Positions 2,851-39,619 of a DNA stretch of 40,972 nt are shown in pieces. The stretch is from assembly GCA_000934665.2 (NCBI GenBank), contig JYFJ02003520.1:1-40972 (forward strand). Reading direction: 5' to 3'. The DNA is from Catajapyx aquilonaris. Taxonomy: Eukaryota. Within the stretch, counting starts at the first letter, position 1. Each line of letters opens with the position of its first letter. The position numbers and the translations under genes were made by a program. Under the pieces are notes generated by a model. That model had not been told where the DNA came from, made no database searches, and worked only from the letters and a program-made list of their open reading frames with translations.

Positions 2851-4132
2851 GCAAGATGGTACAGTAAGGAAAAGCAGGAAGGGGAGGGAGCGGGATGTGG
2901 GAATCCCTGAAGACATATTGTAAGAAATTAGTTGCAAGACTTCTCAACTTCAGGAAAAGCGTAAGTTAATAATAATAACAGAATGACAAAATAATGAAAA
3001 TCAAAAGTTAGTCTTTCCAGAGAAAAAGCTGCTCAGTAATTAGCTGCTTTTCTTTCATTAGGTTTCAGAATTAAGAATTATGCAAATATGAATTAAAGGG
3101 AGTTAGGGAAAGTATTTGCGATATGTATTTAAATACTCAGAAATGTATTGAAATACAGGAGAACCAATGTAGTTATAAATACATCTCTATATACCAAAAA
3201 GTAGATAGCATTCTGATAAATCATTCTGCATTCTGCATCAGCATTCTGATACATCATGATTGTCATTGATTGATAATGTGAAGAAGTGTGAAATAGGAAG
3301 GATATACTCTAACAACCGTGATGTGAAGCAGGTTGTTCACATATTGATGATCATTAGTAATTGACTGGTTTTAATAAAAATTTGGGTGATTGTTGAACCT
3401 TGTAATGAAGATTCCACTCATCCACTGGATTGACTGGTTAGAGGAAGGGTCACCTCTGCTCACCCGTCCGCGGCAATAATAATTGTTACTCGAAAGAACA
3501 TTGCAATTTCCTCTTAAAAATTGTTCTACTGTAGCCTACATAATATGATGTGTGGAATTCTTTGTGACGGTTCCATCTATTTGGTTGATCACAGACATAT
3601 TAATGGCCTAATAAGATGAGTAATGGCGACGTGGGTTGAGCCATTTTCTGTATTGTTAGGAAGCGCCAGAAGAAAATATTATATGCGCCATAATAAAAAC
3701 CTATTTATTCATGGAACTGGTTCTGTCCCTCTGGGCCTTATCTTCCATTTTCGCAGCTCCCTGCATGGGTAGCATGACGTACTGAAAATATGAACACAAT
3801 CAGCATCCAATAACATAATTTAGCAGTTAGGCCTATACTTACCGGTACCATAGACGATATATCGGGCGATATAATTTGAGCTCGTTACTTTTATAATTAT
3901 TACCCTCTATGTGTATAGTTTTAAATGTACTGCGCCAATACATTGTTGTCATTTTTATTCATACAGTAGACTACACCATTGCACTTTACAGTACAATTAA
4001 AGTGTTTATTGGACTTTCCAACCATTAAGGTTCCCAAGCCCTTACACTAAACTACTAAAGTAATACATAAAATCAACTGCAACAATATTTTTTAAAAAAA
4101 TCACTGGTAATCTTTACAGTCCTTTACAGTAC

Positions 4133-7653: not shown

Positions 7654-7738
7654 TATAGCCTTGCCAATTTTGGGCAAATAGTTCTTCATACCAATTATTG
7701 GTATGAAGAACTATTTGCCCAAAATTGGCAAGGCTATA
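7654..7738. repeat. Perfect 85-bp palindrome (TATAG...CTATA)
   Basis: 42-bp arms around a single central base. Confidence 0.9.
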
Positions 7739-7847
7739 TATAATTATTATGGCACGCCGTGATTTTGTCTACATTTTGCGATGTCCAATAAGTACGCAGA
7801 AATGGGTCACTGTCCCAGTTTGCCACACAATCATGAGTCAGCATGCC

Positions 7848-9737: not shown

Positions 9738-10057
9738 CATCCGTATCAGGCTCATCTTCTGAAGGGCAGTCCCCCTGACCCTGGTCTGGTTCCATGCCTT
9801 CCATGTCGAACACGGTATGCATATCCAAGGAGTAAGTTGTCCCTGATGCTCCCCCTCCGGTTCCCATTCCGACTCCTCCCTTTCCCCCAGCCATTCCTCC
9901 TACCCCCTTTGGAGGGGTGGCCTTGGCCACTTCAGCTACCTTCCTTCTTGGTCCAGATGAGGTTGACACCTGCCTTGGTGGAATAGCAGCATCCAGTCCG
10001 GATTTGCTGGCCACGATGGACGGGTGCACATTTTGGGACTCAAGGTGAGTCAATATG
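9738..10057 (-). CDS. AKT1S1: PRAS40/Lobe-like gene, coding exon 5 (includes TOS-like VFDMEG)
   Basis: Acceptor TTCTCAG, donor G|GTGTGT, phase 2/1. TOS-like motif FDME followed by an acidic stretch. Confidence 0.88.
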
Positions 10058-28853: not shown

Positions 28854-29199
28854 CATCGATGACAAATTCCTCAACTTGCTCCTCTTCCAACTGCAGCTCC
28901 TTGGCCACTATCTGGAACCCAATCTCTGTGTGCGTCTCTGCCATCTGCATGAAGGTGAGGAGGCGCATCTTCTTCAGGTTCTGCTCGTGTGAGAGGCCCA
29001 GAGAGTTGACAAATTCCCGGTGTTCAGTGTAAAACTTGATGTAATTGGGCAGTTTCTCAGACACAAAAATTGTCAATAGGTCATGGATCAGCTGTCCTTC
29101 CAGGAACTTCACAGGCTTCAGGGTCAGCAGGTGGTCAAGCAGGAAAGTATTGGGATCAGCAAGAGATGCTATGATGCAACGCTGAGCATCCTCCCGTGC
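28854..29199 (-). CDS. EIF3M: eIF3 subunit M, coding exon 5 (AREDAQRC...PCI domain...EFVID)
   Basis: Acceptor AACAG, donor [28 protein letters not shown] and [11 protein letters not shown] are characteristic of eIF3m. Confidence 0.96.
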
Positions 29200-29370
29200 C
29201 TGTTCAAGAGATGCAGAATGAACTTTTCTTACAAGCTGATCATATTACTCCTTCTGTTAATAAAAGTCATAAATTGCTTAAGTGTACATAAAATAAAATC
29301 TTAACACTGCTCAACTGAAAAAATGTGGCTTAGGCAAATTACTGACTCAAGAATTAACAGAGTTACTTAC

Positions 29371-29656
29371 TTGAGATGCATTTTCACTGGTGTACGTTCC
29401 AAGCAGTTCTACCATAACCCTGGAGGCATCCTTGCCCTTTCCACAAGAGATCAAGGCCTCATGGAGTAGTCTCAACAGCTTCTGCATCTGGTCGCTGGAG
29501 GGTGGACATCCTGACAGCTGCTGTCTCACCCCCTCGACGCCATTGTTGAAGATTGTTCCAACTTGGCCCACACGCCCAGCTACTGACACCAGGTGGTAGT
29601 ATATGTGGTAGCGCATGGGAGACCTTTCTTCCAGAGAGTGAAACAGAAGCCACAGC
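29371..29656 (-). CDS. EIF3M: eIF3 subunit M, coding exon 4 (LWLLFHSL...VMVELLGTYTSENASQ)
   Basis: Acceptor ATTAG, donor CAA|GTAAGT. Conserved VMVELLGTYT motif. Confidence 0.95.
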
Positions 29657-30560
29657 CTAATCAAGGGGTTAAATAATGAAATTCTGTTAGTCTCTGTGTT
29701 TAGATATATTGCTTGCATGTGAAAATGCCTGATGCAATGTTGAAAGAAACGTACAGACTAATGCCTCATTCAGATGTGCTACTTTTTTGTTGTTGTTGTT
29801 GTTGTTGTTGGATAAACTCTACCAAGCTCATACACTTTCAGCTAAAAATCCAGGCCCAATACCTGCCACCTTCATGCAAATTTTGGGATTGGGCAGCCTG
29901 TGTCAAGTTTGTTTGAACTTAATACCAGCTGTCCAGGCTGTTAAGAGGCTTAACAATAACTTTTGGTATACCAATTTCAGCATAGTAATTTGTAAATACA
30001 GTAGGTACCCATTTTACGCTGTTAATTGGTTCCACCAACATAGCAGAGTAAAGTGAATAGGTGTAAAACGAGACATTATAATAATGTAACTGAGATAGAT
30101 TCCAAAATTTCCCCGTAGACGCTACTAATATTGCTGTTTTTAATGCTGAATATTTGAAACAGATATTACACCCATTTAATGGGAAGTTCCAGGTTGAGGG
30201 TCGTGTTCTGAGGGCTCCATTCCCTTGTATGGCAAGGCTTGCAGTACACATAGGGTATTTAAAAACGGTTCGAGTACTTCAGGGAGTGCCAAGACAAACA
30301 ATACTGTACTGTATGTATCGATAGACCCCACCACAAGAAACTAAATAAGAGCCTTTATGGTCATGTGTTTAGACTCAGAAGTGTTGCAGTGATGTATTGA
30401 GATTTATTTTTTTAAGATCTTGCTGTTAACTGCAAAATTTTCATAATTTTCCGCTGAAAAATTCCAAATGCAATAATTTTCAAACTAGCATTAATGTGAA
30501 ACGGCGTAAAACGGGTACTTACTGTACATGTTTTTCTCATCTATCACATGGTGCCGAAGC

Positions 30561-30695
30561 TACTGTTGCTTGCCTAGCCTGGTTTCTAACCCAACAATGA
30601 GTTAGATACAATTGGCAAAGTCAAGCTTTATGCTCTCCCTAGTTGTACACCTCTCCTAAGATGTAGTAACTCAAAAGAGGCGTCAAAACTAGGGC
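30561..30695 (-). ncRNA. Candidate box H/ACA snoRNA in eIF3m intron 3
   Basis: Sense to the host gene, about 135 nt. Hairpin 1 (CCCUAG/CUAGGG; CCUCU/AGAGG), H box AGAGCA at 30636-30631, hairpin 2 (GCUUG/CAAGC; UCUAACUCA/UGGGUUAGA), then an ACA box at 30566-30564 plus 3 nt. Confidence 0.7.
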
Positions 30696-30942
30696 TTTCC
30701 AAATTGATGTGCATCACTGCACTCAGTTTCTGGATAGCAGCCTATTATTGCTGATATCCAACCTTTAAATTGACAATTACTTTATTATAATTAATCATCT
30801 GCCAATGTAAAGCATAATTACAGAAAGAACAAGCACTCAGCTATGTGCTTAGATATGCTCCCATAATACAATGCTATCCAGCTTGAACATCACTGATGCA
30901 CATAAGCATTACTCTTAATTCAACACTTTATAATATACTCAC

Positions 30943-31037
30943 ACGTGCAGGCAGACCAATGCTAGCTTGTTGTTTGGTGCCTTGGCTAATTTCTCACCAA
31001 AAGCAAGGATCAAATTCTCTGACCGCTCAGCTGGAAT
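30943..31037 (-). CDS. EIF3M: eIF3 subunit M, coding exon 3 (IPAERSENLILAFGEKL...CLHV)
   Basis: Acceptor TGCAG, donor GT|GTGAGT, phase 0/2. Confidence 0.92.
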
Positions 31038-31219
31038 CTGCAAGCATTTTTATTTTATTACATAATTACCACAATGCCAACTAGTAGCAAGCCATGACAA
31101 TACACCTGTGTTAAAAGCATTCGGCCAAGATCAATGTCACATATGACTCAATGCTTAAAACGCATGAGATGTCACCTACATGGCTTGCCAGGCATTACAA
31201 AATTATGATAATACTATAC

Positions 31220-31399
31220 CAAAACTAGCATCGAGACAATTCCATTGAGCACGCCTTCAATCTCTGTCTCATTTCCTTCCTTCAGGCAGGCATCACAAAC
31301 GCCAATGATCTTGTGCAGGTCATCCTCTATTCCTTTCGAGCTCTTCTCCTCTGATATCTCTGCACCAAGGCTCTTCAGGTATGACCTAAGCTCCTGGGC
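31220..31399 (-). CDS. EIF3M: eIF3 subunit M, coding exon 2 ([18 protein letters not shown]...SMLVL)
   Basis: Acceptor TGTAG, donor TTG|GTATAG, 60 codons, eIF3m-like sequence. Confidence 0.93.
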
Positions 31400-35360: not shown

Positions 35361-35564
35361 TGAGGGGTCTCAGATCAAAGGCGGCTAAGTCCAGTTTTGG
35401 GGAGTGCAACACAAATACGTCCAGGTCCAGCAATAATGTATTTTAATGTCATTGGGTATTAATTGCACATTTGCGTATGTAGCTGAGCCGTGGCAACATA
35501 TGGACGCAAAAAGCAACAAGATATAGTGAAAGTAATCAGCAGTTTTTGCTCATTTTACGACCCG

Positions 35565-35615
<51 letters not shown>

Positions 35616-35648
35616 GTTACTTAGCCGCCTTTGATCGTAGACCCCTCA
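35361..35648. mobile_element. mariner-type MITE containing an (ATT)n microsatellite
   Basis: TA-TGAGGGGTCT..GATCAAAGGCGGCTAAGT and its inverse, TA flanks. Confidence 0.75.
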
Positions 35649-37000: not shown

Positions 37001-37665
37001 TTGCGTGCATTTTGTCAGGACCCTTTCGGATTATCTGGAAGACCTCTGTAAATTGTTGAGGAACGCAGGTTTTTGATTGTGAAGCAACCAAGTGTTAATG
37101 TGATAAACCAACTCATTATTGGGTTTAATTATACAAAATATGGGCAGTAACCCCTTACACCAGAACAATGCCGGCCAAAATCTGAAAGACTTTGCTACAA
37201 TCAGTAAGTCAAAGTGGCATAATCATCAGGGCGGATCTTCTTGGGACACAAGCATGTTTGGCTATGATGGCAAGTTGTCCATCCTTGTGCTTCGGCAGCC
37301 AGTGCAGATCATCCGGACACAAGTACTGGACATCACTGTCATCAAACAAGACAAAATTAATGTCTGAATATTTTAGAAAATGGGGGGTTGGGGGTAATTG
37401 TTGGTGTAGTTGTTGGCATTGTTTATTTATTTATCATACCCCGATGGGCCGTACAAGCCTTGGGGGGGGAGACAGCATCAACAGCCAGTTACCGTTGATT
37501 TTATTTCATCACAAGTTACATCACATGAAATTTATACGCTTACTCACGTTGTGCATGAAGTTAGTTGTTGGCATTGTTGAAGGCATTGTGACGTTTTACT
37601 GACTACGTACACTTCTAATATACAGTCCATATGAAAATTGCATACACACTACTGATTAACTTTAA

Positions 37666-38627
37666 GAGCGCGCTCTAGGCTACGCTATTCATTGTTGCGG
37701 GTAGCCCGTCGCGGGCCGGCCCGTGAGTTTGACACTTCTTCTTCTCGCTGTCACGGCCGCAAATATGGAGGTATCGGCATGAAACTGGAGTATATGGACG
37801 CGAAAGGGTTGCACTTTGAGATGGTGCGCTTATTTTTCTCCTGGGGCGATATTTGCGGCCGCCGCGGCCAGGTACATTTTTTAAATTTTTATCCGCAATT
37901 ACTCCTTTCCATGTCGGTATCTGTGAAATTCGAGAGCGTCAGCTTGTTTCTACGCCGAATTACCGTAAGTCTGTGAAACGGCACGAGTGTGGGACTCTTG
38001 GTTTGGCCAAACTTTGGGATTGAAAATACCCCCCTCTATGAGCAATAACAACTCGCACGAAGAAAGGGACGATCTGGCAGCGCCGCGCTGACTGCTAAGA
38101 CACAGCGTTACCAACTGTGCCACCCTTGACTTGTTTACATCGTTTTAATAATTATTAGCGCTCTACTTTATCCGGCCGTCGCCGTGGTTACCGAACTGGC
38201 AGTCGGCGCGGCGCTGCCAGATCGTCCCTTTCTTCGTGCGAGTTGTTATTGCTCATAGAGGGGGGTATTTTCAATCCCAAAGTTTGGCCAAACCAAGAGT
38301 CCCACACTCGTGCCGTTTCACACACTTACGGTAATTCGGCGTAGAAACAAGCTGACGCTCTCGAATTTCACAGATACCGACATGGAAAGGAGTAATTGCG
38401 GATCAAAATAAAAAAATGTACCTGGCCGCGGCGGCCGCAAATATCGCCCCAGGAGAAAAATAAGCGTACCATCTCAAAGTGCAACCCTTTCGCGTCCATA
38501 TACTCCAGTTTCATGCCGATACCTCCATATTTGCGGCCGTGACAGCGAGAAGAAGAAGTGTCAAACTCACGGGCCGGCCCGCGACGGGCTACCCGCAACA
38601 ATGAATAGCGTAGCCTAGAGCGCGCTC
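37666..38627. mobile_element. Sola3-like non-autonomous foldback element
   Basis: TTAA TSD, GAG...CTC termini, near-identical TIRs of about 430 bp, spacer of about 100 bp. Confidence 0.85.
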
Positions 38628-39619
38628 TTAATACGTTACTTTTATATATTTTAAAAATCATACGCAAATTATGCCCATAAAAGGAAATAGTTAATATGCC
38701 ATGATTACCTCATCTACGATGCCACTCAACGGTCTTCATCGCCAGAATCACACGTGCACTGTGCGATTGAGCTGAGTTTATCCTGGAAGTCATCTGTCCG
38801 TGAGAGCAAGAGAGATTGAAAGGTATATAGGAGGTGGTGGATATTACCACCATTGGTATTTTTGGAGCGTGTTAAGATGGAATCTTATTAGTGTACTCCA
38901 AGGGTTGGTAGGAGGGGATGTGCAAAGTGCATGTGCGCTGTCGTTAATTGGTCATTTTGTGAACTCCCCCGGGTGGATTAGTCTTTAGGAAATTTCCACC
39001 CGAAATGAAGCCAGAGATGCCTGCCGAGGAGTTTTGCAGCGGGTGCTCACCTGAGAGCGCCATGAGACATTTCCCGGATCAATTATGTGGCGACCCTACC
39101 GGACTAGGCTGAACTTTATATGTACAAAAGGGAAGCGCTACATTGGGGGACCCAACATCGGCGCCGGCGGCCATGTTGGGCCCGCATGTAGCGCTTCCCT
39201 TTTGTGGAGACCCCCAGAATATCACCGTTACAATGGGGACATGTCCCCACTATTTCGCTTTGCAGGGTTTCACAAAAGTCCATTTCTCTCAGCCTAGGTT
39301 AGTTAGGGTAGGGTAGGGTAGGGTAGGGTAGGTTAGGTTAGGTTAGTTTACACTCGCTACGAAAAGTTCAGTTTCCACGTCCCCACACCTTAGTGAAGAC
39401 AGGTCGGTGTGATCTCGTGTGTTATTTACCAATTCTCCTATGAAAATAACCGGTTATTCTATAGAATAACCGATTAATCTAAAATAACCAGTTAATCTAA
39501 AATAACCGCTAACCGGTTATAACCGAGGTTATTTCAATAACCGATAACCGGTTTCCAAATTCAATAACCACACCCTAGAGCAGACCCTATCTGCCCTGCC
39601 AAGCAAGAACGCAGGAACT

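Follow-up and report, generated by a model that had tools for sequence, protein, structure and literature searches.

This locus raises the question of whether an intron of the eIF3m gene of Catajapyx aquilonaris encodes a box H/ACA snoRNA and, if it does, which uridine that RNA would guide to pseudouridine. The window analysed here is the whole stretch of 40,972 nt of contig JYFJ02003520.1, and all positions refer to it. The initial annotation had proposed an element of about 135 nt with the order hairpin, H box (AGAGCA), hairpin, ACA and three further nucleotides, located in an intron of a translation-factor gene and directed by its 5' hairpin to 28S rRNA. We consider it probable that the candidate is a genuine intron-encoded box H/ACA snoRNA that guides 28S pseudouridylation at the base of the helix adjoining the P-loop. 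The snoRNA call and the target prediction stood up in every test that was run. The target site is not new, and the gene belongs to no Rfam family.

Structure of the element and its host intron

The predicted H/ACA snoRNA was delimited by its boxes and its fold to 30561..30695 on the minus strand (135 nt, with nt 1 at window position 30695). The minimum free energy (MFE) and centroid structures obtained with ViennaRNA both consist of a hairpin, a hinge, a second hairpin and a tail, in agreement with the layout proposed initially, and the element is read from the minus strand. Hairpin 1 (30637..30694, minus strand, nt 2-59) comprises an 8 bp lower stem, a pocket, an upper stem of 11-14 bp and a 9 nt loop, as seen in the MFE fold and in a fold with the pocket held open. 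The pocket is formed by the 5' strand UUUGACG (30681..30687, minus strand, nt 9-15) and the 3' strand UGUAC (30645..30649, minus strand, nt 47-51), exactly as described before. The H box AGAGCA (30631..30636, minus strand, nt 60-65) fits ANANNA and is unpaired in the hinge of the MFE structure. Hairpin 2 (30568..30626, minus strand, nt 70-128) has, in the same structure, a lower stem with a bulged A, an internal loop and a 9 bp apical stem. In the sequence, its base is followed by one A, by the ACA box (30564..30566, minus strand, nt 130-132) and by the predicted tail GUA (30561-30563, minus strand), which sets the predicted 3' end.

The pair at the top of the pocket, C16:G46, is separated from the H box by 13 nt (nt 47-59), the same count as in the initial annotation, and the target uridine would accordingly be placed 14 nt upstream of the box. 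Canonical H/ACA RNAs keep a distance of 14-16 nt between the target uridine and the downstream H or ACA box, a spacing rule that is said to originate with Ganot et al. and Ni et al. in 1997; the 13 nt spacer of the candidate is at the short edge, that is at the lower bound, of this range. Features of the H/ACA class found here are two hairpins joined by an unpaired hinge with an ANANNA H box, a bipartite pocket that leaves the uridine and the next base unpaired (with surrogate eukaryotic LSU rRNA) and a target uridine 14 nt from the H box, the last at the lower bound.

The fold has an energy of -56.1 kcal/mol, compared with a mean of -32.8 kcal/mol (s.d. 3.3) for 200 dinucleotide shuffles (z = -7.11), and 0 of the 200 shuffles folded as well as the candidate. 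For the complementary strand z was -2.83. Three pairs within the pocket (A13:U49, C14:G48 and G15-U47) are closed in the MFE structure; holding pocket 1 open cost 6.5 kcal/mol (giving -49.6 kcal/mol) and left the remaining fold unchanged.

A UGAG motif (30670-30673, minus strand, nt 23-26) is present at the top of the upper stem of hairpin 1, where it adjoins the 9 nt apical loop. It resembles what we take to be the CAB box of Cajal-body H/ACA RNAs. The motif is closed by weak pairs alone (G-U and A-U), and it could equally be there by chance.

The rarity of this architecture was assessed by a scan for hairpin-ANANNA-hairpin-ACA with loose energy limits on both strands of the 41 kb window (82 kb of sequence). 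Nine matches were obtained, among which the candidate was second by summed energy (-55.0) and the sole one with both hairpins at or below -25 kcal/mol. The top match, at 7658-7832(+), combines one hairpin of -65 kcal/mol with a weak one and was set aside as a probable inverted repeat. The third match and next best plausible one, at 9901-10033(+), reached a z score of only -1.64 when folded whole. A blastn search showed the candidate to be single-copy in the window, with no other match longer than 22 nt.

Several other features of the window were recorded during the scan of its open frames. At 7658-7832(+) the hairpin of about -65 kcal/mol is followed by a run that translates as poly-Val, and the whole is probably a long inverted repeat or a transposon end. 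Open frames on opposite strands at 37656-37973 (+) and 38371-38709 (-) have in common a long stretch of residues (...RARSRLRYSLLRVARRGPAREFDTSSSRCHGRKYGGIGMKLEYMDAKGLHFEMVRLFFSWGDICGRRGQVHF...) that appears identical, corresponding to an inverted duplication of roughly at least 230 bp with its copies about 400 bp apart. Peptide motifs (...SILQNG.FNETARARNA... and ...RPFCRMDGL...) recur at 206-667 and 1655-1915; they are read in several frames from both strands and point to copies of a single interspersed repeat. A long trinucleotide microsatellite at 35550-35645 reads, depending on the frame, as poly-Tyr, poly-Ile, poly-Leu or poly-Asn, and single N bases occur at 2201, 35191 and 36186.

The host gene was identified on the minus strand from its coding exons. 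Exons at 31214-31399 and 28861-29244 match residues 15-73 (E = 1e-13) and 196-312 (E = 3e-44), respectively, of human eIF3m from the Protein Data Bank, and the exon immediately downstream of the candidate (29360..29656, with an exact start and an approximate end, within 29347-29757, minus strand) matches residues 100-200 (E = 8.7e-18). Among protein clusters, an exon of eIF3m matched generic PCI-domain clusters only. An upstream exon of 95 nt (30943..31037, minus strand) was placed independently of homology: its frame is open, it has AG/GT borders (preceded by AG, followed by GTGAGT) and its junction with the exon starting at 29656 is in frame. The 36-residue piece translated from 30943-31037 gave no eIF3m match at E values of up to 10, being too short.

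With these putative splice sites the host intron extends over 29657..30942 (minus strand, 1286 nt), in accordance with GT/AG borders and continuity of the reading frame. It begins with GTGAGT and has a CTAAC some 30 nt ahead of its terminal AG. The candidate starts 247 nt past the predicted 5' splice site and ends 904 nt ahead of the next exon. As judged from the gene sequence, it is located between eIF3m coding exons and on the sense strand even if the 95 nt exon is wrong; the match of coding exons on both sides to human eIF3m bears out the sense-strand position in a translation-factor intron that had been claimed. According to the initial annotation eIF3m is not a known snoRNA host, and the titles retrieved in a literature search likewise contained no record of it as one. 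Four sequencing runs contain this stretch, all recorded as DNA and all from one study, three of them possible sources of the DNA analysed; a fifth run, of unrecorded kind, has next to none of its words. One of the DNA runs with this sample code contained no more than 0.81 of the words sampled from 30400-30850, so that a variant haplotype of this part of the intron probably exists.

The predicted target in 28S rRNA

With C16:G46 as the closing pair, the H/ACA pairing rule selects 5'-GUACA-U-N-(C/U)GUCAAA-3' as the target of pocket 1. The 5' strand of the pocket would pair with UGUCAAA of the rRNA, 3' of the target uridine and the next base (7 bp, one of them G-U), and the 3' strand would pair with GUACA, 5' of the target uridine (5 bp). 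Surrogate rDNA was collected by scanning metagenome contigs with the 18-mer given in the initial annotation, with Y at the target position; the surrogates are unrelated environmental eukaryotes picked by the motif itself. The scan yielded at least 97 loci and at least 105 matches. Among the matches listed, 103 have T and two have C at the target position, and with 150 nt taken from either flank they fall into 84 distinct contexts, of which 82 have T. A strict LSU flank pattern is fitted by 78 of these 82 among the matches listed, and the two contexts with C clearly do not come from rRNA.

One of these loci, L004, contains complete 18S, 5.8S and LSU genes as annotated with Rfam models. On its rDNA unit pocket 1 has a single match, GUACA[U]C-UGUCAAA at LSU position 2806, with 7+5 bp and one G-U pair, and four alternative closing pairs gave nothing comparable on the same unit. 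In 80 distinct oriented rDNA loci (534 kb) from the matches listed, no second recurrent site was found for pocket 1; the recurrence of the main site in those 80 loci is circular, the loci having been chosen by the motif. The Rfam LSU model has ...CUGGGGCGGcACAuCuGuUAAA... for this segment; the helix that comes next after the P-loop helix has the target u as its second base, paired with g in the consensus. Counted from the second G of the P-loop GGGG, the target uridine is 10 nt further 3'. The string predicted in the initial annotation is a real segment of LSU rRNA, directly 3' of the P-loop helix. Judging by the contexts and the Rfam consensus, eukaryotic LSU rRNA commonly has U at this position; human 28S rRNA presumably has C.

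The same string had been called 'invertebrate-type', a description that holds in part. A crustacean small-RNA read listed in one study, GGGGCGGTACATCTGTCAAACGA, carries the target string and maps without mismatch to Daphnia (PMC3309017), so that the exact variant matched by the guide exists in animals. Drosophila, on the other hand, has CUCUCAAA, and the string is not universal in invertebrates.

The complementarity was examined with two controls on the L004 rDNA. When the 12 letters of pocket 1 were shuffled 5000 times, four of the 5000 shuffled pockets reached at least 12 bp with at most one G-U pair; 16 of the 5000 gave at least 11 bp to a U of this rDNA, and 161 reached at least 12 bp if any number of G-U pairs was accepted. 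In a more liberal control 400 random 135 nt pieces of the window were used, every MFE pair being tried as the pocket top and the geometry being ignored. At least 12 bp with at most one G-U pair to a U of the L004 rDNA were found for 16 of the 400 pieces, and at least 11 bp for 51. Complementarity alone corresponds roughly to p = 0.001 to 0.04, according to the freedom allowed. The case rests on complementarity, architecture, geometry and the pseudouridine of Drosophila (see below) in combination.

For hairpin 2, to which no target had been assigned, none that is convincing was found here either: in the 80 distinct rDNA-bearing loci from the matches listed, no target recurred that had 11 bp or more and no more than three G-U pairs. 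The longest match (7+6 bp, five G-U pairs, closing pair C82:G117) is to 18S rRNA at UUCUUAGU[U]GGUGGAGUGA, which we take to be a conserved modified position, Psi1290 in yeast and Psi1347 in human. On L004 it centres on the second U of AGUUGG in the 18S rRNA, at SSU position 1296. This match is kept as a lead only; its five G-U pairs fail the filter of at most three, the lower stem would have to be partly melted, and only 12 nt remain to the ACA box, without a proper upper stem.

Related families and the Drosophila guides

The comparison with Rfam that had been suggested as a check did not come out in favour of a known family: no Rfam 15 family reaches its gathering score anywhere in the window. 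Under relaxed conditions the best match was SNORA13 (RF00396), which scored 17.7 bits (E = 2.2), its gathering score being 53. Model positions 1-134 of SNORA13 align full-length to 30561-30695(-), and the two-hairpin layout and the box positions are shared. The consensus pocket of SNORA13 is GUGUUg / GU.CAAA, compared with UUUGACG / UGUAC in the candidate, and SNORA13 presumably guides an 18S site. As far as the alignment indicates, the likeness is one of class and not of family. Other relaxed matches in the intron (mir-280-like, SNORD36-like and Me28S-U3344-like, with E values of at least 1.4) were treated as chance, as was a SNORD121A-like match at 30822-30879(-) (18.7 bits, E = 1.4), in the alignment of which no C box was seen.

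A two-block pattern of 25 bases taken from the candidate gave 0 matches in metagenome contigs and 0 in prokaryote-genome contigs. Compared with box H/ACA snoRNAs in general, the candidate displays no structural difference. It has the same succession of hairpin, H box, hairpin and ACA, a bipartite pocket and a uridine about 14 nt from the box, and like them it lies in sense orientation within an intron of a gene related to translation.

The predicted target corresponds to a site mapped in the fly. Table S3 of a D. melanogaster Psi-seq study lists site 6423 of M21017 with the flank GGGCGGTACA[T]CTCTCAAATA and the alias 'Ofengand site' (PMC9997552). The CMC termination ratio given there is 0.47-0.57 for this site, compared with 0.006-0.009 in the mock samples, and the site has rank 1 in all 11 sample columns; the alias stands for a set of 57 LSU pseudouridines that primer extension had located in 1997 (PMC9997552). 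The calls of this study are liberal, since 735 rRNA sites were called in total (PMC9997552), yet site 6423 has rank 1 and is also a primer-extension site. The target uridine is, in Drosophila 28S rRNA, a validated pseudouridine that has been known since 1997.

Guides for a fly site of this kind have also been annotated. In a listing of fly snoRNAs, snoRNA:Psi28S-3091a (135 nt) and snoRNA:Psi28S-3091b (133 nt) are entered as FlyBase FBgn0082979 and FBgn0082978, respectively, both on chr3R, with 159 TPM for Psi28S-3091a and 898 TPM for Psi28S-3091b in S2 cells; snoRNA:Me28S-G3081a is also listed (PMC13228274). Counting back 10 nt from site 6423 in the fly flanks leads to the second G of the P-loop GGGG. 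We take this G to be the conserved 2'-O-methylated one. Because the names G3081 and 3091 differ by 10, which matches the offset of site 6423, we infer that the fly position '3091' is the target uridine. The fly Psi28S-3091 snoRNAs were reportedly described by Huang et al. in 2005; the name Psi28S-3091 and its variants are absent from the searchable main texts of the literature. The guide had been presented as one for a lineage-restricted pseudouridine, and this novelty is weakened, the same uridine being a pseudouridine in Drosophila with annotated and expressed fly guides, if the position is numbered as we suppose.

The flank in Drosophila is CUCUCAAA and not CUGUCAAA, a difference of one base that creates a mismatch with C14 of the guide. 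Judged by base pairing, the guide fits the CUGUCAAA variant and not that of the fly. The candidate and the fly guides, named for 28S position 3091, would act on the same uridine and are alike in length (135 nt, compared with 135 and 133 nt in the fly). They differ in the target flank, the fly guides facing CUCUCAAA and the candidate being complementary to CUGUCAAA, and in the host: the candidate is within eIF3m, whereas in the fly eIF3m maps to chr2R and the guides to chr3R. In function, the candidate appears to correspond to the fly Psi28S-3091 guides.

Alternative explanations and the proposed role

A chance pair of intronic hairpins with box-like motifs, which would give no stable RNA and have no function, is an unlikely explanation. 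It would be consistent with the lack of a matching Rfam family, with the lack of a homologue of the two-block pattern in the metagenome and prokaryote-genome collections, and with the finding of nine H/ACA-like architectures in the window under loose criteria. Equal complementarity in 16 of the 400 random 135 nt pieces with geometry ignored and the partial self-pairing of the pocket in the MFE structure also point in this direction. Chance is, however, difficult to reconcile with a z score of -7.11 and no shuffle as good among 200, with the position of the element on the sense strand of an intron in a translation-factor gene and with its being the sole architecture match that has two strong hairpins. 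The pocket is moreover at the canonical distance from the H box, and its one strong target is a uridine proven to be a pseudouridine in Drosophila, where the 57 known LSU sites make up, by a rough estimate, a small share of the 28S uridines.

We regard as improbable a real H/ACA RNA with some other role, be it an orphan, a guide for an snRNA or for another rRNA site, or a relic whose target base in the 28S rRNA has changed. The pairing is known from surrogate rDNA rather than from Catajapyx 28S rRNA, hairpin 2 has its 7+6 bp match in 18S rRNA and UGAG at nt 23-26 resembles the CAB box, all of which would suit such a role. The 18S match contains five G-U pairs, has poor geometry and is excluded by the filter of at most three G-U pairs, while the match of pocket 1 is far better and unique; a changed target base is made less plausible by U being common at this position in the Rfam consensus and in the 82 contexts among the matches listed. 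Very improbable in our estimate is a pseudogene, a snoRNA-like copy that arose from a repeat or by retroposition and has lost its function. Retrocopies of snoRNAs are common in animals and the window is rich in repeats and inverted duplications, but the element is single-copy in the window by blastn and its boxes, stems and guide are all intact. An unsystematic look at the flanks also revealed no poly-A tail or target-site duplication.

For the preferred reading, a box H/ACA guide of the P-loop-adjacent uridine, we infer expression and processing of the RNA, its ends, a U with these flanks in the animal's own 28S rRNA and the modification itself. The gene, about 135 nt long and situated in the second of the eIF3m introns mapped, would be co-transcribed with the host pre-mRNA, and the RNA would be released by splicing, debranching and exonucleolytic trimming to a two-hairpin core, protected by the dyskerin, Nhp2, Nop10 and Gar1 proteins. 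The pocket of the 5' hairpin would then pair with 28S rRNA on either side of one uridine. This uridine and its 3' neighbour would stay single-stranded at the pocket top, about 14 nt ahead of the H box, and dyskerin would turn the uridine into pseudouridine there. The 3' hairpin would probably serve for assembly and stability only.

A more tentative proposal, which we think possible but doubtful, concerns the history of the site. The candidate may be orthologous to the fly Psi28S-3091 guides or may replace them functionally; the modification would then be an old one in animals, perhaps older, with a guide that moved between host genes, and vertebrates would have lost both guide and modification on the change from U to C in 28S rRNA. 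If this were true, the change from U to C in vertebrate 28S rRNA would turn a U-G wobble into a C-G pair, and the site would provide a clean case of joint loss of a guide and its target base.

The candidate leaves the view of how H/ACA RNAs work unchanged. If it is real, the catalogue of a non-model animal would gain a snoRNA gene that had escaped annotation, with eIF3m as a new host gene, and a P-loop-adjacent pseudouridine so far documented in Drosophila would be guided in a second lineage. The antisense strands of the guide would track the lineage's own rRNA variant, and the candidate would be of use in annotation and in tracing the co-evolution of guides and rRNA targets near the peptidyl-transferase centre.
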